IMG/VR virus record: IMGVR_UViG_3300013121_000026 | Location: 1-64,000 of that record | Length of the DNA stretch: 64,000 nt | Strand: one strand, 5' to 3' | Source: a virus | Lineage: Duplodnaviria > Caudoviricetes | Part shown: piece by piece, positions 16,851 through 47,221 of the stretch | Layout: every line of letters starts with the position of its first letter | How positions within the stretch are numbered: the stretch's first letter is position 1 | Program-made: the position numbers and the translations under genes | The notes under the pieces: model-generated | Told to the model about the DNA's origin: nothing | The model's database searches: none | The model's input: the letters and a program-made list of their open reading frames with translations, nothing else

Positions 16851-17300
16851 ATGATTATTAATGTAACTTCAACATATACACTGTCCGCAGGTCATTATGT
16901 TATAGGTGACCCTTGTATATTAATTCCCTCACTTTATTTTACAGAGCTAGAAACCACCAGCGACTTTTGGCGTCAGCCTAATGGTTATTTTGTTCTTAAT
17001 GGCGAAAAGATTGATGTAATAACCTACGAATTAACTGATGGTTATTATTACTTCGACCAGCACAATAATTTAAAAATCGGGCCTGAAATTTGCATAGCAG
17101 ATATTTACAAAAATAATCTATTGGAACTGAATTCCGGTATGATTTCTATTGTTAAATTTATAAATAAAATACATTCAAAACTACTAAAGAATGACTACGT
17201 GTCTTTGAAATCCAAAAAAGAATTCAGTGTGTTTGAAAACAAGGACCACGTTCAATTTGGAAACATTGCTTATAAAAAAACAAAAATGGAGAGTACCTAA
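16851..17300 (+). CDS. Hypothetical protein
   Basis: ORF with GHYVIGDPC motif and RBS. Confidence 0.55.
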   Translation: MIINVTSTYTLSAGHYVIGDPCILIPSLYFTELETTSDFWRQPNGYFVLNGEKIDVITYELTDGYYYFDQHNNLKIGPEICIADIYKNNLLELNSGMISIVKFINKIHSKLLKNDYVSLKSKKEFSVFENKDHVQFGNIAYKKTKMEST

Positions 17301-18646
17301 TGAAAAACACCACGCCCTTTCAATCATATGTTTACAAAAGTCGTTATTCAAGATTTTTGCATGATAAAGGACGTCGTGAAAATTGGGATGAAACAGTTGC
17401 TAGATATTTTGATTTCTTTACCGAACATCTTAAGAAAACCTGCAATTACACCTTAGATTCCGAGCTTAGAAAAGAACTGGAAACTGCGGTTCTTAATTTT
17501 GAAGTAATGCCTTCAATGCGAGGAATTATGACTGCAGGTCCTGCATTAGAGCGAGATCCCGGAGCAATCTATAATTGCGCTTATACAGTAGCAGACAATC
17601 CTAAGGTGTTTGGTGAAATTATGTATACCTTGATGCTCGGCTCAGGAATTGGATTCAGCGTCGAAAGACAATACGTAAACAAGTTGCCAACAATTCCCGA
17701 TCAGTTATTTTCCTCAGATACAATTATAACTGTAGCAGACAGTAGAATTGGATGGGCTAAGGCTACAAATGAATTAATATCAATTCTATATGCTGGTTCA
17801 ATTCCAAAATGGGACCTATCAAAATTGAGACCAGCGGGAGCCATATTAAAAACATTTGGTGGTAGAAGTTCTGGACCAGAACCACTAAAAAGAACATTTG
17901 AGTTTATCGTTGAAACATTTAAATCAGCATGTGGCAGAAAACTTACGTCAATTGAATGCCACGACATTATCCTTGTAATTTCTGAAGCTATTGTTTCAGG
18001 CGGTGTTAGAAGAAGTGCATTGCTATCACTATCTAATCTTTCTGATGACAGAATGCGATTTGCTAAATCAGGACAATGGTGGACGCTAACACCATGGCGC
18101 TCAATGGCTAATAATACAGCGGTTTATAATGATAAAAGACCTTCAATGGATACATTCATGACGGAATGGAAAGCATTGTATGACAGCAAGAGTGGTGAAC
18201 GTGGCATCTTTAGCAGGTATGCAGCCAAGAACGTAATTGACCGCGCTAATGCATTTAGAAAAACCCATTTTGGTGAACAAGCGCGAACAAGAAATACTGA
18301 ATTTGAATTTGGACTAAATCCTTGCGTTTCTGGTGATACAATTTTAGAAGTTTTAATTGATGAAATTTACCATAAAATAACTATTGAAAATTTAACAGCA
18401 TATTTAGAAAAAAATCCAAAAAGTATCATCAAAGTAAAATCTTACAATATTGAGGAAGACAGAATAGAATACAATGTGACGTCTTTTATTGGAGTTACTC
18501 AAAAAGATGCTAAAATATTAAAAATAACGGACACCATAACAGAAAAATCAATAAAAGTAACACCGGATCATCAAGTCTGGACGGAAAATCGAGGATGGAT
18601 TAGGGCGGATCATTTAAAAAGTGATGACATATTAAAAATTATATAA
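17300..18646 (+). CDS. nrdJ: Class II ribonucleotide reductase N-part fused to N-terminal split intein (from Cys at 18323)
   Basis: RRENW.ETV.R, MPSMR, YNCAY, VSGGVRRSA, GLNP|CVSGDT...VTPDHQV. Confidence 0.95.
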   Translation: MKNTTPFQSYVYKSRYSRFLHDKGRRENWDETVARYFDFFTEHLKKTCNYTLDSELRKELETAVLNFEVMPSMRGIMTAGPALERDPGAIYNCAYTVADNPKVFGEIMYTLMLGSGIGFSVERQYVNKLPTIPDQLFSSDTIITVADSRIGWAKATNELISILYAGSIPKWDLSKLRPAGAILKTFGGRSSGPEPLKRTFEFIVETFKSACGRKLTSIECHDIILVISEAIVSGGVRRSALLSLSNLSDDRMRFAKSGQWWTLTPWRSMANNTAVYNDKRPSMDTFMTEWKALYDSKSGERGIFSRYAAKNVIDRANAFRKTHFGEQARTRNTEFEFGLNPCVSGDTILEVLIDEIYHKITIENLTAYLEKNPKSIIKVKSYNIEEDRIEYNVTSFIGVTQKDAKILKITDTITEKSIKVTPDHQVWTENRGWIRADHLKSDDILKII

Positions 18647-18653
18647 TCGTTAA

Positions 18654-18698
18654 AATCCCTGTTGTTATAAATAATAAACCGGAGTAACAACAGGGATT
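18654..18698 (+). promoter_or_regulatory. Late promoter TATAAATA (18666-18673) within a 14-bp perfect hairpin covering the endonuclease RBS
   Basis: AATCCCTGTTGTTA / TAACAACAGGGATT inverted repeat. Confidence 0.8.
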
Positions 18699-18705
18699 AA
18701 GACTA

Positions 18706-19668
18706 TTGAACGAAATATCTGAATTTGCACATCATAATAATATGTCAATTGACGATGCCACATATGTTTTAAGAAACAAAAATCCAAGATGCAAATGTGG
18801 GGATTTTAAAAAAACTATGAACAGCCCTCAATCCAAAGTTGGGCAAGCATTATATAGAAATTGTGGAAAAATTAAATGTGAACACAACTATGGTAAAAAA
18901 AGACCAGAACATTCACAATATATGAAAAAATTAGCCAAATCTAATAATACTCGATATACTGCAACTCTAATGAAGAAAGGACAATTGTTTAATAAAGAAG
19001 TAAATAGTGTTTCATTTAAAAGAAAATTTTTATCCAACAAAAAAATTGAAACAGAACATTTAAATGACAATGAAGTTTTAAAAGTATTCGCTGATTACAA
19101 ATCCAAATTAGTAAAATCTAGGGAATATAGAACAAAAGAAATAATATCTTTTTTTAAGAAAAATACTAAACAAGAATTAGATATTCAAAAAATTAATAAA
19201 CTTAGTGTAGAACAATTTAATAGATTGTTTTATTTGTATAAAAGTGAGCATCATGATATATTCTGTTCTGCAGTTTGTAATGCAAAATGTTACAAAAGAT
19301 CGCTACTAACTGATTTAAAATTTAATATCAGGGGTCTTACTAGCGTATATACTAGATCATCATATGACACAAATTACATTTTATATTTTGAGAAAAACAA
19401 AATAAGATGGGATTATGAATTTAAAAACTTTAGATTGCCAGCAAAAAAATACAAACCGGATTTTTACGTTAACTATAACCAAAATAAATACATCATAGAG
19501 GCTAAAGGATTTTTGTTAGACGAAAAAGAATATTTTGATTTAAATGTATACCCATTATTAAATATAATTTCTCCCCTGGGAGTGAAGTATATTTTCAGTT
19601 ATAAATCAGAACCATATCAAGATTTTACAAAATTTTTAATAGAACACGAGGTTAAGCAAAAATGTTAA
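18706..19668 (+). mobile_element. Free-standing endonuclease, PD-(D/E)XK type, between the nrdJ halves
   Basis: C-terminal RSSY...WDYE...YKPDF...IIEAKG; N-terminal Cys pairs; AT-rich; TTG start. Confidence 0.8.
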
Positions 19669-20684
19669 TAATAGAAGAAATTACTGAAACAGAAGATGTA
19701 TATGATCTTACCAACCCAACGAATCATAATTTCTTTGCTAATGACATTTTAGTTCACAACTGCGCCGAGATTTTATTAAGAGACAAGGAATTTTGTAATC
19801 TAAGTGAAGTTGTCATTAAACAAAATGATACAATCAAAACACTCCAAAAGAAAATTCGCCTAGCAACAATTCTTGGAACGTTTCAAGCAACGCTAACGGA
19901 CTTTAGATTCATCAGCAAGAAATGGAAAGACAACACCGAAGATGAAAGACTATTGGGTGTTTCTCTTACTGGAATAATGGACAATGAATTAACGTCGACT
20001 AAAAAAGGGATTGATAAACTAAAAGATTGCCTAACAGAACTTCGCAAAACAGCGATTCAAACAAATCAAGAATTTGCAGACAAGTTAGGAATACCACATT
20101 CTGTTTCTGTTACTTCAATTAAGCCAAGCGGAAGCGTCAGTGCGTTGGTTGATAGTGCATCAGGTATTCACACTAGACATTCGCATTATTATATTAGAAG
20201 AGCTCGTTCAGACAAGAAGGATCCATTAGCTCAATACATGATTGAAATCGGTATTCCCTACGAAGAGGATAAATTTAATAAAGAAGCCTGGGTATTTTCC
20301 TTCCCTCAAATGTCACCAGAACATGCTATCTTTAGAAATGACTTGTCTGCTATTGAACAGTTAGAAATTTGGTTACTGTATCAAATGTATTACACTGATC
20401 ATAAGCCATCAGTTACTATTTCTGTTAAGGAAGAAGAATGGATGGAAGTTGGAGCCTGGGTCTATAAGAACTTTGAGTGGATGAGTGGTGTTTCCTTCTT
20501 GCCATATTCCGATCACATTTATACGCAGGCTCCATTCGAAGAAATCACTAAGGAACAATATGATTTAGCAATGAAGAGTATGCCAAAGGAAATTGACTGG
20601 AATAAGCTAGTTGATTTTGAAAAAACTGACATGACGACAGGAAGTCAGGAGCTCGCTTGCGCTGCTGGAGGATGCAATATATGA
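19662..20684 (+). CDS. nrdJ: C-terminal split intein (33 aa, ends HN at 19760) fused to NrdJ C-part
   Basis: VYDLT..NHNFFAN.ILVHN|CAEI; CNLSE, IKPSG, C-terminal ACAAGGC. Confidence 0.95.
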   Translation: MLIIEEITETEDVYDLTNPTNHNFFANDILVHNCAEILLRDKEFCNLSEVVIKQNDTIKTLQKKIRLATILGTFQATLTDFRFISKKWKDNTEDERLLGVSLTGIMDNELTSTKKGIDKLKDCLTELRKTAIQTNQEFADKLGIPHSVSVTSIKPSGSVSALVDSASGIHTRHSHYYIRRARSDKKDPLAQYMIEIGIPYEEDKFNKEAWVFSFPQMSPEHAIFRNDLSAIEQLEIWLLYQMYYTDHKPSVTISVKEEEWMEVGAWVYKNFEWMSGVSFLPYSDHIYTQAPFEEITKEQYDLAMKSMPKEIDWNKLVDFEKTDMTTGSQELACAAGGCNI

Positions 20685-31084: not shown

Positions 31085-31523
31085 ACCAAAAATATTTTCA
31101 TAGAAACACAAAAATAACATTTGACTTTCCATAAATAGCATTGTATAAAAGTTAAAGTTAAATAAAACGCAAGGAAAAAGTTTTGCATCTACAGGAATAC
31201 ACAAAAATTCATTGTTCGGATCAATGGTATCCGATGCCTGTATTTGCGCGTAATACAAGCTCATAGGCTTGGGTTTTAGGACCCTCGCCTAGTAAAGGTT
31301 GAGGGTGGTTAAGTTAAATTTCCCTCAACATAGTATGTGATTTTGGTGACTAGCTGATCTGGCCCACGAAGGACATCCAGCAGCAGCCCACACGGGAAAG
31401 CGGCTTAACTGTACGCCACGTGACAATCATATATTAAAAAAGAATTAGAGTTCCCTAGTACCTGGGGAAAGAAGTTGGTCCGCTGGCCTTTACTTTTAGG
31501 CGAACACAGGTACACTAATTTAT

Positions 31524-31559
31524 TCCTAGGTAGCTCAATTGGTAGAGCCCTCGGCTGTT
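31524..31559 (+). pseudogene. tRNA-Asn 5' half, ending at the GTT anticodon
   Basis: TCCTAGG acceptor strand, D arm, CTCGG-CT-GTT; partner half at 32184. Confidence 0.8.
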
Positions 31560-31590
31560 GAATACACAGTTTTACGATTCACAAATGCAA

Positions 31591-31664
31591 TGCCTAGTAG
31601 TTCAACTGGTAGAACGCACGCCTGTTAAGCGTTGAGGTTGTAGGGTCGGAGCCTACCTAGGCAG
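31591..31664 (+). tRNA. tRNA-Asn(GTT), nested inside the split tRNA-Asn
   Basis: TGCCTAG/CTAGGCA, loop CTGTTAA, G73; no encoded CCA. Confidence 0.85.
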
Positions 31665-32069
31665 CATTTGCTCAAAATCATCTACTAGTAAAACTAATTC
31701 TTGATAACTTATTGACGAACTAGTTTTCTTTTTATTAGCAAGTGTCCTAAATAAAGATTCTTTTTGTTTTGTCCTAGATTCTTTAGATCTCAGTTTATTA
31801 TTAAAACTTGCATTACAAGATCTACTACAAAATTTAATAGAATATCCATCATAAGATAATATTTTATTACATTTTAAACAATAATTTGGATTAGCATAAT
31901 AATCATTTAAATTTTTACATTTCTTTTTTACTTCGAATGTGCTGGTTGCTTCACAAAAATACTTAGTAATGGGCTTTTGAATTTTAGTACTATGTGCTCT
32001 TTGATGACCGGATAAAGAATATTTTGAATTAAACTCTCTATTACATAGATGACATTTAAACTTGTTCAT
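31653..32069 (-). pseudogene. Zinc-finger protein, probably a truncated homing endonuclease
   Basis: C2H2 finger and CxxC..FCSRSC motif, no nuclease domain; RBS GGAG; minus-strand TATAAATA at 32157-32164. Confidence 0.6.
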
Positions 32070-32183
32070 GTATTACTCCATAAATAGTAGGTGGGACAGC
32101 TCGGTTGACTCCATAACTGAGTTGTTGATTACTGAAATTAATCAACTAACCACATTTATTTATAAATTAATCCATTTTAGCGT

Positions 32184-32221
32184 CCGAGTGGTTGGGGGAT
32201 CGTGGCCCTCTCTAGGAGCCA
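32184..32221 (+). pseudogene. tRNA-Asn 3' half with CCA
   Basis: CCGAG anticodon strand, T arm, TCTAGGA-G-CCA complementary to the 31524 half. Confidence 0.8.
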
Positions 32222-32414
32222 TTTCGAGAGCGAGTTAGGTGTGGAAAGGGAATTGTTTTGGAATCGCCATCGTGCGCGCCGCCATTAGTGTATGGTCATA
32301 GATCAATGACAACACGTGGCGGATACAAACTTAATTTCCTTCCAACCTGCTAACTCGGTAGCCTTTTAAAAAAGGAGCAACTAACACGAGGCGTCAGAAC
32401 ACGCCTACTCGAAA
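32222..32414 (+). ncRNA. Candidate structured ncRNA (long rod plus two hairpins)
   Basis: Closing TTTCGAG/CTCGAAA; CGAGTTAG/CTAACTCG rod; GC-rich and non-coding. Confidence 0.5.
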
Positions 32415-32568
32415 ATAGGTATCTAGCGGGTGACTGTTCATCGAACCGTAATTTTACAAAAATAATGAACTCAATTTTTGTATTCTAGATACCTATTCTA
32501 AATTAAAGCTGGCCCATTTCATGACGCAATGTATTTGGGTGTGAATTAGACCAGCTTTATTAATTTAA

Positions 32569-33921: not shown

Positions 33922-34008
33922 GCTAGAGTCCCATAGTGGTCGAGTGGACTGGTTTTGTAATCCAGTAGGGTAACCTCAACGTGAGTTCGAATCTCACCTC
34001 TAGCTCCA
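33922..34008 (+). tRNA. tRNA-Thr(TGT) with long variable arm
   Basis: GCTAGAG/CTCTAGC, loop TTTGTAA, variable AGG-GTAA-CCT, CCA. Confidence 0.85.
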
Positions 34009-37179: not shown

Positions 37180-37668
37180 ATGTCATATTTTGAAGGTTAC
37201 ACCGAGTATCTTTGCAAAGAAGGTCACTATTTTGTTGATAGTTGTTATATGGATACAAGCGTAGAACGCTGTCCAGAATGTGGCGCAAGTATTGAATATG
37301 CCCATGACGTAGACATAACTAGTGGACAAGATGAAGCTGCTAAGGTTAAAATTGGTCATACTGATATTTGGTCTGTAGACCATTATGGTAACAAATATGC
37401 CAATAAAATGATGTTTTTTAAACCTGCCGAAGGAAGTGATTGGAAAAAAATTAAAACTCATAGTATTTCTGCTACTGAAGTCAAACAATTAAAAAACGGA
37501 ATTTATGAAATAACATGGTGTGATGGGGGAACATCATTAGCAGCAGTTGGAACACTACATAATAGTAATAAGTGGTTTGCTCCAATTAACTGGACGGGCA
37601 CTAGTGAAAAGCATATTGCTTGTACCGATTGGGCAATGGTTGTTAGTGTAAAATTAATCTCCTCTTAG
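37180..37668 (+). CDS. Hypothetical Cys-containing protein
   Basis: C..GH...CPECG; RBS AGGAG; stop lies within tRNA-Arg. Confidence 0.6.
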   Translation: MSYFEGYTEYLCKEGHYFVDSCYMDTSVERCPECGASIEYAHDVDITSGQDEAAKVKIGHTDIWSVDHYGNKYANKMMFFKPAEGSDWKKIKTHSISATEVKQLKNGIYEITWCDGGTSLAAVGTLHNSNKWFAPINWTGTSEKHIACTDWAMVVSVKLISS

Positions 37669-38177: not shown

Positions 38178-38263
38178 TCGAGGATGCGCTAACGGTAGGC
38201 AAGCGGACTTTGAATCCGTGCTAGCTCAAAAGAGCTATGAAGGTTCGATTCCTTCTCCTCGAT
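38178..38263 (+). tRNA. tRNA-Gln(TTG) with long variable arm
   Basis: TCGAGGA/TCCTCGA, loop CTTTGAA, TAGCTC-AAAA-GAGCTA extra arm. Confidence 0.8.
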
Positions 38264-38346
38264 CTCAAACATCCAGAAAACAAAAAAATTAAAAAAACAG
38301 ACACTATACAAATAGGGTTTGTTAGAAGTAGAATTAAAAAGAATAT

Positions 38347-38654: not shown

Positions 38655-38774
38655 AGGCTATCTACAGCAACTAATTTGGGTCTTGTATACCCGTGGTCGT
38701 TGGTTCGAAGCCAACCTAGGTTATTTGTTAACCTAGTAGCTCAGTTTGGTAGAGCACGTAAAATGTATAGCCTG
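38655..38774 (+). ncRNA. Stem-NTNCNGCA RNA unit B enclosing a circularly permuted tRNA-Thr(TGT); Y RNA/YrlA-like
   Basis: AGGCTAT/ATAGCCT-G; order anticodon arm, T arm, loop-closed acceptor stem, D arm. Confidence 0.8.
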
Positions 38775-38785
38775 TTTTAATATAT

Positions 38786-38860
38786 ACGAGTGTAGCTTAG
38801 TCTGGTCTAAAGCACTGGTCTCCAAAACCAGCAACGTGGGTTCGAATCCTACCTCTCGTG
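38786..38860 (+). tRNA. tRNA-Trp(CCA)
   Basis: CTGGT-CTCCAAA-ACCAG, canonical T arm. Confidence 0.88.
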
Positions 38861-39413: not shown

Positions 39414-39935
39414 ATGTTCGAGTTCATCCATCATGGTGGATTTTATGCTGAAGTTTGTTCCCCTAATTTCTATTTGCATAACAACATTGTTTTTTACATT
39501 CCACCAATTACAATTAATACACATGATCTTGACAAAGGTGGGAATTGGAAGCTAACTGCTAGTCGGAAATCCCATTCATCATCAATTCGAATTCGTGTGT
39601 TTGATCATGAAACTGGATTTGCATTTGGTTTTAGAGTTCCTGGATTTAATGCCAAGAACGAAAATCATTTGTTTGATGAAGTTAATAATTTATTCCAGTC
39701 TAAAATCTTAATTAAAAATAGAGTCTACAAAACATTTACTTTTGAAAGAGCAAATATTGTTGCTACTAATCTATACAAGGAAATTGACGACAACTGGATT
39801 AAGGAAAACGTTGTCGAAATGCTTGATAAGTATAATGAGAAAATCAAAAGTGAACTTGGTGATTTTCGTGTTAAAGAAGATGAACAGACATGGTGGCCTT
39901 ATAATTGCCCACCTGAAATGAGACTAACAGAATAA
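39414..39935 (+). CDS. Hypothetical protein
   Basis: ORF with RBS. Confidence 0.55.
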   Translation: MFEFIHHGGFYAEVCSPNFYLHNNIVFYIPPITINTHDLDKGGNWKLTASRKSHSSSIRIRVFDHETGFAFGFRVPGFNAKNENHLFDEVNNLFQSKILIKNRVYKTFTFERANIVATNLYKEIDDNWIKENVVEMLDKYNEKIKSELGDFRVKEDEQTWWPYNCPPEMRLTE

Positions 39936-39937
39936 AT

Positions 39938-39972
39938 GGCTCCGTAGCTCAGCAGGACAGAGCAACAGCCTT
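39938..39972 (+). pseudogene. tRNA-Arg 5' half, broken in the anticodon loop
   Basis: GGCTCCG, D arm with A20, ACAGC-CTT; partner half at 40849-40885. Confidence 0.75.
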
Positions 39973-40011
39973 AAGAAGAACACCTCAGAAAATAAGTTTA
40001 ACAGAATAAAT

Positions 40012-40094
40012 GCGGTTGTAGCCGAGGAGAGTTTCTACCTCTTTAAACGTAACTGGAGCTGAAAATGCGGGTTCGAATCCTGCCAACCGCGCCA
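40012..40094 (+). tRNA. Aberrant tRNA-Arg(TCT)-like gene lacking a normal D arm, nested in the split tRNA-Arg
   Basis: GCGGTTG/CAACCGC-G-CCA, AGAG-TTTCTAC-CTCT, canonical T arm. Confidence 0.55.
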
Positions 40095-40233
40095 TCAAAA
40101 AGTATCTATATTTAAATAGTAAAATTTCTGCAATCTTCCTTGGAGGAAATAATTTGTAAATTAATGAGTCCAACGACAATGTCTAATTTTTCTTTTTGTT
40201 GTTTTTGAGGTTTATAATAAACTTCATTAAAAA

Positions 40234-40735
40234 CATGCTTATCCGGTTAACACATACAATTCCCTGTGCTAGTTTTTGGTCATCGGGCAATACCGCCATT
40301 TCATGGAGGCTTTCATGGCTCACGTAACGATCGAAACCGACTCCAATGGCAACGTTGTTCTGGTCGAACCCAAGCGCCGCGCCGGATTGGACCAACGTGT
40401 ATTTCGTCAGATTGGCGTTCACTATGAGTGGGCTCATTTGAACGACTGGCGCGAACACGGTGGCCGCGCTCGTTTTTACGGTTGGGCTTCTAAGGAACTT
40501 CCCGCCACCATGACATCGCAGGAGGCGTAAATGAACGACGTTGAAGAATGCCGCCGCTGCAACGGGTCTGGCGAAATTGCGATAAGCACGCGAGACGGTC
40601 ATTTTATTGCTCCGGGACCGGTTCCAGACGACGCTACCGGGTTTGCCGTCGCAACCTGCGATGAATGCCGTGGAATGTGCTACGTTGAAGACGGATCAAC
40701 CTTTGGAGGATGTATGTTCAAACCGGATAAGCATG
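40234..40735. mobile_element. Non-autonomous IS1595-family-like cassette with two passenger ORFs
   Basis: 15-bp TIR CATGCTTATCCGGTT, 8-bp direct repeat ATTAAAAA (40226-40233, 40736-40743), GC-rich interior, no transposase. Confidence 0.8.
40315..40530 (+). CDS. Passenger hypothetical protein
   Basis: RBS GGAGG before MAHV; GC-rich. Confidence 0.55.
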   Translation: MAHVTIETDSNGNVVLVEPKRRAGLDQRVFRQIGVHYEWAHLNDWREHGGRARFYGWASKELPATMTSQEA

Positions 40736-40740
40736 ATTAA
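40531..40740 (+). CDS. Passenger zinc-finger protein with DnaJ-type CxxCxGxG motifs
   Basis: CRRCNGSG and CDECRG; RBS AGGAGG. Confidence 0.6.
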   Translation: MNDVEECRRCNGSGEIAISTRDGHFIAPGPVPDDATGFAVATCDECRGMCYVEDGSTFGGCMFKPDKHD

Positions 40741-40848
40741 AAAGACTATAAATATTCATGTGGGACTCCTTTGGTTTTATGCATTTAGTTCTACAGACCA
40801 TGGGTATTTGTACTACCGCGATGGTCACTACTATTTATAAAAACTGGA

Positions 40849-40885
40849 GCTGAAAATGCGGGTTCGAATCCAGCCGGAGTCACCA
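40849..40885 (+). pseudogene. tRNA-Arg 3' half with CCA
   Basis: GCTG, T arm, CGGAGTC-A-CCA complementary to GGCTCCG. Confidence 0.75.
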
Positions 40886-40896
40886 AATTATTTTAA

Positions 40897-40971
40897 GCGT
40901 CCGTAGTTCAACAGCGGAATACTAGTTTGCCAAACTAGAGGTCGTGGGGGCGGCACCCACCGGACGCTCCA
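40897..40971 (+). tRNA. tRNA-Gly(GCC)
   Basis: GCGTCCG/CGGACGC-U-CCA, loop TTGCCAA. Confidence 0.88.
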
Positions 40972-41090
40972 AATAAATGTGTTGTAATCTTTATCTTTTG
41001 TGTTACAATGATTTTCGTAACAAGGAGAACGCAATGTACACCGAAAAACAATTGTATGACGCACTTTGTGAGGTATTGTCTAGTGAATAA

Positions 41091-42319: not shown

Positions 42320-42405
42320 GGAGGGTAGCACTCAATGGTGGGTAACTGGTCTTGAAAACCAGGCTGACCGAAAGGTCAAGGGTTCGATTCCTTTGCCCTC
42401 CTCCA
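42320..42405 (+). tRNA. tRNA-Ser(TGA)
   Basis: GGAGGGT/GCCCTCC, loop CTTGAAA, variable arm GACC-GAAA-GGTC. Confidence 0.9.
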
Positions 42406-43853: not shown

Positions 43854-43943
43854 GGACCCATAGTTTAAAGGTAAAACACCAGTTTTATAAACTGTACTCC
43901 GGATTAGAGGGTAATATAGGTTCGAGTCCTATTGGGTCTACCA
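43854..43943 (+). tRNA. tRNA-Ile(TAT) with extended variable region
   Basis: GGACCCA/TGGGTCT-A-CCA, CAGT-TTTATAA-ACTG. Confidence 0.75.
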
Positions 43944-45844: not shown

Positions 45845-47221
45845 ATGAACGCATTTGTTACCGCAGCTCAATCACATGAAGCTCGCACAGAAAATAATAT
45901 GAAAGCATTGAACGCCACAGGCAACGCTTGTGTCGATCTTTTCTTCGCAATTGGTTCCTCGCGGAAAACCGACATTATTCCGCGATTTGTCGCCGCATAT
46001 GTTGAAAATCCTCAGGTGGCCATTCGTGTTGCCTTGTGGGCTCGCGATGCTCGGGGTGGCGCTGGTGAACGCAAGGTTTTCCGCGACATCTTGAACTATC
46101 TGTCTATTAACAATAGTGAATACACAGATCGAATTCTTAATCGAGTGCCTGAACTCGGCCGCTATGACGACTTGTTCTATGCGCCGAACCACAAGGGAAC
46201 CGCATTTGAAATTATTAAGAACGCGCTGGAAGATCCTACAAAGAAGGGTCTCGCTGCAAAGTGGATTGACCGCAAGGGAAACAATGCAGTTGCTCTTCGT
46301 AACTTTCTTGGACTTTCACCCAAGGCATATCGCAAGATGTTGGTAAATGCTACCAATGTTGTCGAGACGCCTATGTGCGCTCGTGAATGGGGAGCTATTA
46401 ATTACAATCATGTTCCTTCTGTTGCTTCTGCACGCTATCAGAAGGCATTCAATAAGCATGACGCCGCACGCTACTCAGTCTGGAGAAACGGTCTAAAGAG
46501 TGGTGAAACTAAGGTTAATGCGTCTGTTCTTTATCCTTATGAAGTTCTTCGTTCAATCCGCAGTGGTGATAAGGACGTAGCTTTGGCACAGTGGGAAGCA
46601 TTGCCTGACTATATGGGTAGTCAAAACATTCTTCCTGTGGTTGACGTGTCTGGATCAATGACGTGCCCAGCATCTGGATCAATCACTTGCTTGGATGTTG
46701 CTTTGTCACTTGGTTTGTACCTTGCTGATAAGAACAAGGGTGAATTTAAGGACACGTTCGTTACATTCAGTGGTCATCCTGAGTTGCTACATTTGAAGGG
46801 CACTTTGCTTCAGAAAATGGATCAAATGAATAATTCTGATTGGATGATGAACACTAATCTACATGCAGTATTTTCGCTAATCCTTAAGACTGCATTAGAT
46901 GCAAAGGTTCCTCAGGGCGACATGCCTAACACGATCCTGATTCTTAGTGATATGCAATTCGATTCATGTGTTGATCATGATGACAGTGCAATTCAAATGA
47001 TTAATAGAAAGTACACAGAAGCAGGTTACGAAATGCCTAAAGTTGTATTTTGGAATTTGAATGCAGGCTATAAAAACGTTCCTGTTAAGTTTGATGCTAA
47101 GGGTACTGCTTTGATTAGTGGATTCTCTCCGGCGATCATGAAGAGTGTTCTTGCTGCAGAAAACATGAGTCCGGAAGGAATTATGCATCTGACGATTGAC
47201 AACAACCGATACGACTTTTAA
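45845..47221 (+). CDS. DUF2828-type TROVE-like helical domain plus vWA protein (Ro60-related)
   Basis: RDARGGAGER, GRYDD, AAKW, MIDAS DVSGSM, ILSDMQFD, VFWNL, SGFSP. Confidence 0.85.
   Translation: MNAFVTAAQSHEARTENNMKALNATGNACVDLFFAIGSSRKTDIIPRFVAAYVENPQVAIRVALWARDARGGAGERKVFRDILNYLSINNSEYTDRILNRVPELGRYDDLFYAPNHKGTAFEIIKNALEDPTKKGLAAKWIDRKGNNAVALRNFLGLSPKAYRKMLVNATNVVETPMCAREWGAINYNHVPSVASARYQKAFNKHDAARYSVWRNGLKSGETKVNASVLYPYEVLRSIRSGDKDVALAQWEALPDYMGSQNILPVVDVSGSMTCPASGSITCLDVALSLGLYLADKNKGEFKDTFVTFSGHPELLHLKGTLLQKMDQMNNSDWMMNTNLHAVFSLILKTALDAKVPQGDMPNTILILSDMQFDSCVDHDDSAIQMINRKYTEAGYEMPKVVFWNLNAGYKNVPVKFDAKGTALISGFSPAIMKSVLAAENMSPEGIMHLTIDNNRYDF

Follow-up and report, generated by a model that had tools for sequence, protein, structure and literature searches.

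A nested tRNA-Arg locus in a phage genome as the probable scar of endonuclease-driven tRNA gene replacement

The DNA analysed here (the window) is a stretch of 64,000 nucleotides (nt) at the start of a 160,761-bp IMG/VR virus record (IMGVR_UViG_3300013121_000026) with terminal repeats. Our subject is a nested tRNA-Arg locus at positions 39938–40885, in which two halves of one tRNA-Arg(UCU) gene surround a second tRNA-Arg(UCU) gene, the remnant of an endonuclease gene and an IS1595-derived insertion. We estimate a probability of about 70% that this locus is the scar of endonuclease-driven tRNA gene replacement, and neither an intron nor a gene split by design. The parts of the locus and the evidence by which each was assigned are listed below (ORF, open reading frame; aa, amino acids).

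39414..39935, plus strand: upstream 173-aa ORF; its last ~8 codons recur, diverged, before the inner tRNA
39938..39972, plus strand: outer 5′ half, nt 1–34 of a canonical tRNA-Arg(UCU) (acceptor, D arm, sequence identity)
39973..40011, plus strand: left end of the insert, repeating the upstream ORF's 3′ end in diverged form (flank alignment)
40012..40094, plus strand: inner rewired tRNA-Arg(UCU) (covariance model, pairing, family membership)
40112..40233, minus strand: putative endonuclease remnant, distal part (39 codons and stop); its C-terminus QKQQKEKLDIVVGLINLQIISSKEDCRNFTI matches a 246-aa PD-(D/E)xK family
40226..40743, no strand assigned: transposase-less IS1595-derived element inside the remnant ORF (inverted ends, target duplication)
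40744..40759, minus strand: putative endonuclease remnant, first five codons (MNIYS) and first base of the sixth; AGGAG precedes
40832..40839, minus strand: TATAAATA, a T4-late-promoter-like box before the remnant ORF (motif count)
40842..40885, plus strand: outer 3′ piece, chimeric (repeat match, T-stem mismatch)

The broken outer gene and its flanks

The initial annotation had described two outer half-genes with paired acceptor strands, and these are present, 869–871 nt apart; when introns are permitted, ARAGORN reads the two pieces as a single cloverleaf interrupted by 870 nt. Between the acceptor strands (GGCTCCG and CGGAGTC) there are six Watson-Crick pairs and one G·U pair, a match with a chance probability of ~1e-3 at a fixed position. 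The 5′ half comprises the acceptor strand, a full D arm that contains GGA, and the 5′ strand of the anticodon stem (ACAGC), followed by C32, U33 and U34. Scanning metagenomes with 21 nt of this D arm and anticodon stem retrieved intact bacterial-type tRNA-Arg genes, one of which, a tRNA-Arg(UCU) gene on contig L077, equals the outer 5′ half over 28 nt, from T8 to T34; it reads TAGCTCAGCAGGACAGAGCAACAGCCTT then CTAAGCTGT, and continues after T34 with CTAA GCTGT. In the tRNA-Arg (CCU) genes of L074 and L075, the identity to the outer 5′ half reaches the end of the anticodon stem. From the identity with the intact L077 gene over T8 to T34, we conclude that the outer gene was, as judged from its sequence, a canonical bacterial-type tRNA-Arg(UCU) that apparently was broken between U34 and C35.

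The 3′ piece is a chimera. Positions 40842–40871 form a patch identical to the inner gene, with the family-type sequence CTGGA-GC-TG-A-AAAT, the 5′ strand of the T stem and the T loop, and positions 40872–40885 are the old gene's own T-stem 3′ strand, acceptor strand and ACCA. The resulting T stem, GCGGG/CCAGC, has a G-A mismatch precisely at the expected end of the patch. The exact 30-bp repeat that had been noted between inner and outer genes (40051–40080 = 40842–40871) is there and extends to 34 nt with one mismatch (40051–40084 = 40842–40875), stopping short of the acceptor strands, which differ between the two genes. It is largely the invariant core of the rewired tRNA family described below, and in the outer 3′ half it appears to be a patch copied there, not the mark of a designed split gene. 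The 34-nt repeat would follow, as would the T-stem mismatch, if the right-hand end of the insert first copied a patch of the incoming tRNA, or acquired it by later gene conversion. The outer gene therefore keeps a canonical 5′ half and is no longer an uninterrupted gene with a 7-nt loop and a paired T stem: were its halves joined at U34|C35, the anticodon loop would have 8 nt and the T stem a mismatch. Nothing suggests any reassembly of the outer tRNA, and its halves would be dead.

Integrative elements that target tRNA genes duplicate the 3′ part of the tRNA as an att site, and here too a direct repeat of the 3′ portion of a tRNA flanks inserted DNA. We rejected an att-type duplication because the acceptor strands of the two repeat copies differ, each matching its own 5′ half; in addition, the repeat excludes the acceptor strands, there is no integrase ORF, and the arrangement is nested and not of the attL/attR kind.

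The left end of the insert carries information about its source. The upstream sequence reported to be common to both genes, TAACAGAATAAATG, has just two exact copies in the window, at 39925 and 39999. Around it, 39916–39937 and 39990–40011 match at 19 of 22 positions, a similarity that none of 1000 shuffles reached, and both copies lie in the same frame, encoding ..PPEMRLTE* (outer) and ..TPQKISLTE* (inner) with a one-codon indel. The inner flank thus repeats, in frame and with divergence, the last codons of the 173-aa ORF, as would be expected if the insert had come from the orthologous locus of a related phage and not from a recent internal duplication.

The inner gene and a family of rewired tRNA-Arg genes

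The inner gene had been taken for an Arg(TCT)-like tRNA without a normal D arm. A gene is indeed present at 40012–40094, but it belongs to a phage-specific family of rewired tRNA-Arg genes and is not a degenerate D-armless tRNA. Against the Rfam tRNA model (RF00005) it scores 33.8 bits, with the D arm deleted and 20 nt inserted in the variable region; the D-arm hairpin of a canonical tRNA is absent, and ARAGORN finds no usable anticodon. Its stems are nevertheless readily recognized: a 7-bp acceptor stem (GCGGTTG/CAACCGC), a T stem (GCGGG/CCTGC), an encoded G-CCA and an anticodon arm consisting of a 6-bp stem (GGAGAG/CTCTTT) and the loop TTTCTAC (UCU). Two further helices, 10–11/47–48 (GC/GC) and 12–13/37–38 (CG/CG), enclose the anticodon stem, and there is an 8-nt D-loop-like bulge, TAACTGGA.

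Relatives of the inner gene were retrieved with the 18-mer core of the repeat and then with three gapped patterns in which the candidate pairing positions were unconstrained, which yielded ~60 viral contigs and two contigs of metagenome-assembled genomes, with 36 distinct sequences among them. All 36 have arginine anticodons (TCT, ACG, TCG or GCG), and family-wide we observed a 7-bp acceptor stem and a 5-bp T stem with a TTCRA-type loop, with CCA encoded in most members. Covariation is seen throughout the family in the acceptor stem, the T stem and the 6-bp anticodon stem, and the anticodon loop is 7 nt long. The two nucleotides after T8-A9 (nt 10–11) pair with the two directly following the invariant TAACTGGA bulge, in the combinations GC/GC, AC/GT, AA/TT, GT/AC, AT/AT, CA/TG and GA/TC, with one exception, and nt 12–13 pair with the two nucleotides preceding the bulge (CG/CG; CA/TG in L048; CC/GG in Pseudomonas phage PA11). 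In a gapless alignment of 34 sequences, pairing holds in 99.3% of cells, with a covariation score of 0.906 as compared with 0.232 for shuffles, none of 500 of which reached 0.906; slid controls all stayed at or below 0.165. The invariant TAACTGGA ... TG-N-AAAT segment, parts of which were fixed by the search patterns, is present in the inner gene. Because the pairings of nt 10–13 covary across the family, a D stem is predicted to be present in rewired form, with its 3′ strand split around the D-loop-like bulge and the anticodon arm nested inside. A covariance model of the family (R1) gives the inner gene 99.4 bits and all canonical tRNAs at most 35 bits, and it recovers held-out members from Caulobacter phage CcrColossus (79 bits) and Microbacterium phage Pumpernickel (69 bits).

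The tRNA cluster of the window contains a canonical tRNA-Arg(ACG) at 37659 and no UCU gene other than the inner one, so the inner gene would be the only AGA reader of the phage, and it is probably a working one. Under the established E. coli identity rules, A20 is an identity base for arginyl-tRNA synthetase; the GGA of the bulge could supply G18, G19 and this A20. There is a structural likeness to the D-armless tRNAs of metazoan mitochondria, such as mt-tRNA-Ser(AGY), which also lack a D hairpin and have an extended 6-bp anticodon stem (PMC4394434). In the inner gene, by contrast, the D stem would be re-threaded and not lost, with nt 10–13 pairing with the dinucleotides that flank the bulge, and the setting of the rewired family is phages of bacteria.

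A full-text literature search found no description of this architecture, although its coverage was incomplete and it does not prove novelty. The GenBank records of PA11, CcrColossus and Pumpernickel have nothing annotated at the positions of the rewired genes. In PA11 (L068), an annotated TflI-like HNH endonuclease (1038–1546) ends ~27 nt inside the unannotated rewired tRNA-Arg, and in CcrColossus (L069), the unannotated gene lies between tRNA-Asn and tRNA-Arg. Another locus (L003) carries two rewired tRNA-Arg genes in tandem on the minus strand (2684–2851), 1 nt apart and with the anticodons GCG and TCG, and a third candidate further along. The F-Tfl endonucleases of phage T5, named in the PA11 annotation, are likewise HNH nucleases among phage tRNA genes, and the PA11 HNH gene whose annotation notes similarity to T5 TflI stands directly before the rewired tRNA-Arg; the T5 enzymes differ in that they are not known to leave behind split tRNA genes with a nested replacement.

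Endonuclease remnants, the tRNA-Asn locus and stubs in other phages

Just inside the 3′ boundary of the Arg locus, the initial annotation had placed a minus-strand start of an endonuclease gene, and its sequence elements, TATAAATA at 40832–40839, AGGAG and ATG at 40759, are all found; the 'hairpin leader' said to accompany them folds no better than shuffled sequences (z −1.0). The ORF that begins at this ATG has 13 codons as the sequence stands and 45 codons once 40234–40743 are removed. The interruption is an IS1595-derived element, with an 8-bp target duplication, ATTAAAAA, at 40226–33 and 40736–43 and perfect 15-bp inverted ends at 40234–48 and 40721–35. It is GC-rich (55%) and contains two small plus-strand ORFs (40315–40530 and 40531–40740), which in L082 are followed by a 349-aa IS1595 transposase; the element in the window shows the terminal inverted repeats and 8-bp duplication of the IS1595 family and has no DDE transposase gene.

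The last 31 residues of the restored ORF match the C-terminus of a family of 246-aa proteins (E 1.9e-5 in a six-sequence search). In 13 fetched loci, a member of this family, at 45–100% identity, is encoded ~15 nt after a rewired tRNA-Arg. The family has zinc-finger motifs and a PD-(D/E)xK-type ...FPDF...DPK... motif and matches PHROG families named endonuclease and Holliday junction resolvase; it had no match in a PDB profile search and none in Pfam. An HNH profile also hit the Arg remnant, at E 0.08 and in another frame, and was discarded as spurious, as the true match is to the PD-(D/E)xK profile. By this homology, the minus-strand ORF of the Arg locus is a predicted decayed remnant of a PD-(D/E)xK endonuclease, not an active gene.

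A second nested locus lies some distance upstream, around tRNA-Asn.

31524..31560, plus strand: 5′ half of the outer tRNA-Asn, up to and including the anticodon GTT (ARAGORN with introns)
31591..31665, plus strand: inner complete tRNA-Asn(GUU) (ARAGORN call; 49.4 bits)
31653..32069, minus strand: 138-aa internally deleted HNH homing endonuclease, putative (HMMER and alignment)
32183..32221, plus strand: outer tRNA-Asn 3′ half (ARAGORN with introns)

ARAGORN, with introns allowed, joins the outer Asn halves into one cloverleaf with a 622-nt insert. In a HMMER search against 1.8 billion representative sequences, the 138-aa ORF groups with phage proteins of 260–330 aa and is homologous to their N-terminal 120 residues and C-terminal tail. 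It retains a C2H2 finger, a treble-clef module and the last ~25 residues and is without the HNH-like TRDH...NCELM...NN core, so that the gene is to all appearances a decayed remnant with its catalytic core lost, not an active gene. Three intact homologues are each encoded within a phage tRNA cluster, antisense to the tRNAs, and one of these is convergent with a tRNA-Asn 14 nt away and has TATTTATA upstream, as at the Asn locus. The antisense endonucleases proposed for both loci are thus borne out as nuclease homologues, whereas their present state is one of decay, and they belong to two families, PD-(D/E)xK at Arg and an internally deleted HNH type at Asn. Neither locus has the intact nuclease gene of a free-standing homing endonuclease; what they share with such genes is homology to nucleases that adjoin target or passenger genes in related genomes. 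The DNA similarity between the Arg and Asn cassettes is weak, and their leader alignment was equalled by 10 of 300 shuffles.

Two side observations concern the surroundings of tRNA-Asn. GC-rich, apparently structured non-coding stretches without an Rfam match flank the Asn locus (31220–31520 and 32230–32560). On the minus strand of L072, a tRNA-Asn with a ~21-nt variable region (~1089–999) stands beside an intact HNH endonuclease, and adjacent to this tRNA-Asn, at ~1221–1095, lies a tRNA-His-like gene with a ~50-nt hairpin insert in its anticodon loop.

From the two loci, the initial annotation had proposed a recurrent mechanism, and the layout does occur twice in this genome, with related layouts in other phages. 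An ARAGORN long-intron screen for nested loci mostly pairs halves of neighbouring complete tRNAs and was usable only after filtering. Four groups of phage loci (L036, the L021 group, L039 and L042) carry the 5′ stub of a canonical tRNA-Arg gene a short way ahead of the rewired one, with a ~30-nt linker that contains TATAAATA between them. The stub consists of an acceptor strand and a D arm and ends at GAGCAA in three of the four groups, with break points at about nt 26–27 in L036, L021 and L042. Because the acceptor strands of the stubs differ (GGCCTCG, GGTCACA, GGCTGCG, GGTCTCT) while the D arm is conserved, they show the pattern of diverged functional orthologs that would have been overwritten separately, not that of a single decaying relic. 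No matching 3′ halves were found in the stub-bearing loci. Among the fetched loci, only this window retains both halves, together with an orphan family core. In L036, we also observed a class-I-shaped tRNA with the anticodon TAA followed by an orphan T-arm/acceptor/CCA fragment (1331–1448), the acceptor strand of which does not match the upstream stub.

Replacement mechanism, alternatives and implications

The anatomy of the two loci, the families to which their genes belong, the homologies and the parallel cases in other phages are observed, and from them we infer the following course of events. An ordinary tRNA-Arg(UCU) gene would have stood between the 173-aa ORF and tRNA-Gly(GCC), while in a related phage the same slot would have been held by a mobile module consisting of a rewired tRNA-Arg(UCU) and a zinc-finger PD-(D/E)xK endonuclease. 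The nuclease of the module would break the resident gene in or near the anticodon arm, here between U34 and C35, and the break would be repaired by copying the module from the relative that bears it. Short-homology joints instead of clean flanking recombination would have left both old halves around the insert, with the right-hand end first copying a patch of the incoming tRNA. The endonuclease gene would later have shrunk to 45 codons through internal deletion, and the IS1595-derived element would have landed in the remnant last. The Asn locus would be the same kind of scar, left by an HNH endonuclease that travelled with tRNA-Asn.

A precedent in which a nuclease drives the inheritance and rearrangement of tRNA regions is SegB of phage T4. 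It cuts tRNA genes and drives the inheritance of its tRNA region (PMC2330249), and it generates tRNA+segB units joined at microhomology, including truncated nuclease copies (PMC13096335). The likeness lies in a selfish nuclease gene among phage tRNA genes that cuts the tRNA DNA of relatives and carries neighbouring tRNAs with it (PMC2330249; PMC13096335). SegB differs in being a free-standing GIY-YIG enzyme that recognizes a T-loop motif and sits between genes, with no split target, whereas the nucleases here are of PD-(D/E)xK and HNH type and begin with zinc fingers, the target is broken in its anticodon loop and keeps both halves, and the tRNA carried along is a substitute with the same specificity.

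Several observations weigh against endonuclease-driven replacement as set out here. The Arg locus contains no intact endonuclease, so we infer, and do not observe, cleavage of the canonical gene at U34|C35. With simple copying, the endonuclease would not come to lie between inner gene and patch, and template switching or later gene conversion has therefore to be assumed. The remnant lies on the strand opposite to the tRNA, whereas the 246-aa gene of other phages is on the same strand, and this reversal calls for an extra rearrangement. At the Asn locus, the upstream flank of the inner tRNA has no significant homology to the outer flank. Finally, an uninterrupted allele in a close relative of this phage was not found by nucleotide, k-mer and protein searches: megablast against phages returned no relatives, the 173-aa protein had no match among viral contigs, neither a 27-mer of the outer 5′ half nor a 23-mer of the outer 3′ half occurred in viral contigs, and exact-protein look-ups found nothing.

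It is unlikely, though this is the alternative that survives best, that the insert is itself a coherent homing element that resides in tRNA-Arg in the manner of an intron, compensating with its own tRNA instead of splicing and using the outer halves as homology arms. Such an element would fit the occurrence of the same nested layout twice in one genome, a break inside the target gene, as with intron-encoded endonucleases, and the presence of a same-specificity replacement tRNA in the insert at both loci. However, other phages keep the 5′ stub only, with no matching 3′ half found, both endonuclease genes here are dead, and the same nested allele was found in no second genome.

Somewhat less probable again is recombination that needed no endonuclease, either illegitimate or short-homology exchange between co-infecting relatives or a duplication, with the nuclease remnant as a bystander. 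The remnant occupies the same relative place in both nested loci, the linkage between tRNA and nuclease persists down to 45% identity, and canonical tRNA-Arg stubs recur beside the module in other phages. In favour of such recombination, the junction homology is short or nil, phage tRNA clusters are prone to recombination, and the nuclease is only a remnant.

Group I introns occur in the anticodon loops of bacterial tRNAs, as in cyanobacterial tRNA-Leu UAA and Agrobacterium tRNA-Arg CCU, and the position is a classic site for them, often with endonuclease genes aboard. The outer gene resembles these in its long insert in the anticodon loop, sometimes accompanied in the known introns by an endonuclease gene, and in the cloverleaf into which ARAGORN folds the exons, and it might on these grounds be a functional intron-containing or split tRNA from which a group I-type ribozyme or protein-assisted splicing removes the 870-nt insert. 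We consider this very improbable. An Rfam scan of 39800–41000, with E up to 10, returned tRNA matches only and no intron family, and the conserved ribozyme core (P3–P9) that defines group I introns is lacking. The insert is fully assigned to a tRNA gene, a 138-nt ORF remnant and the IS1595-derived element, which leaves no room for such a core; the joined product would be defective in its anticodon loop and T stem, and function here would be restored by a second gene, not by splicing. The least probable explanation is an artefact of the 34-nt repeat in a metagenomic assembly, since exchanging segments at the repeat would leave both inner and outer genes with mismatched acceptor strands, which pair in the present order, the repeat is shorter than ordinary reads, and the Asn locus, an independent case, is arranged in the same way and contains no such repeat.

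The wider setting is that of a phage whose window encodes a family-B DNA polymerase, a helicase, a primase and a ribonucleotide reductase, together with ~27 clustered tRNA genes and a permuted transfer-messenger RNA. The T4 late-promoter motif TATAAATA occurs 15 times in the window against 7 expected, a count reached by no shuffle. The ribonucleotide reductase is divided between two ORFs (17300–18646 and 19662–20684) that cover profile residues 30–389 and 380–696 and are separated by ~1 kb, with TATAAATA at 18666, and this split looks like an interruption by an intron or an endonuclease gene. Within the tRNA cluster, we observed a YrlA-like Y RNA match at 38671–38788 (44 bits; Rfam cut-off 69), 7 kb from a gene for a 458-aa phrog_850 'RNA-binding protein' (45845–47221). 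A weak tRNA-Sec-like match lies at 42320–42401 (41 bits; cut-off 47), for which ARAGORN made no call. Three tRNAs of 87–90 nt, called Thr(TGT) (33922–34008), Gln(TTG) (38178–38264) and Ile(TAT) (43854–43943), have long extra regions that are unusual for such specificities.

More tentatively, and with the odds against it, rewired tRNA-Arg and endonuclease may together constitute a new kind of mobile element, in which the non-cloverleaf shape would be an immunity device born of an arms race: the nuclease would target the D-stem/anticodon-stem region of the canonical gene, and the re-threaded passenger would be without this target yet competent for translation. If true, the nested loci would be snapshots of a take-over. 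The Arg locus holds an old canonical gene, an incoming replacement and a decayed nuclease side by side, with a break point that can be read to the base. Standard tRNA finders overlook the rewired gene, which leaves the tRNA repertoires and codon-usage accounts of many phages, PA11 and CcrColossus included, incomplete. The family as a whole represents a widespread, unannotated, non-cloverleaf phage tRNA-Arg linked to a mobile endonuclease module, and this link provides a testable reason for the existence and spread of so odd a tRNA.

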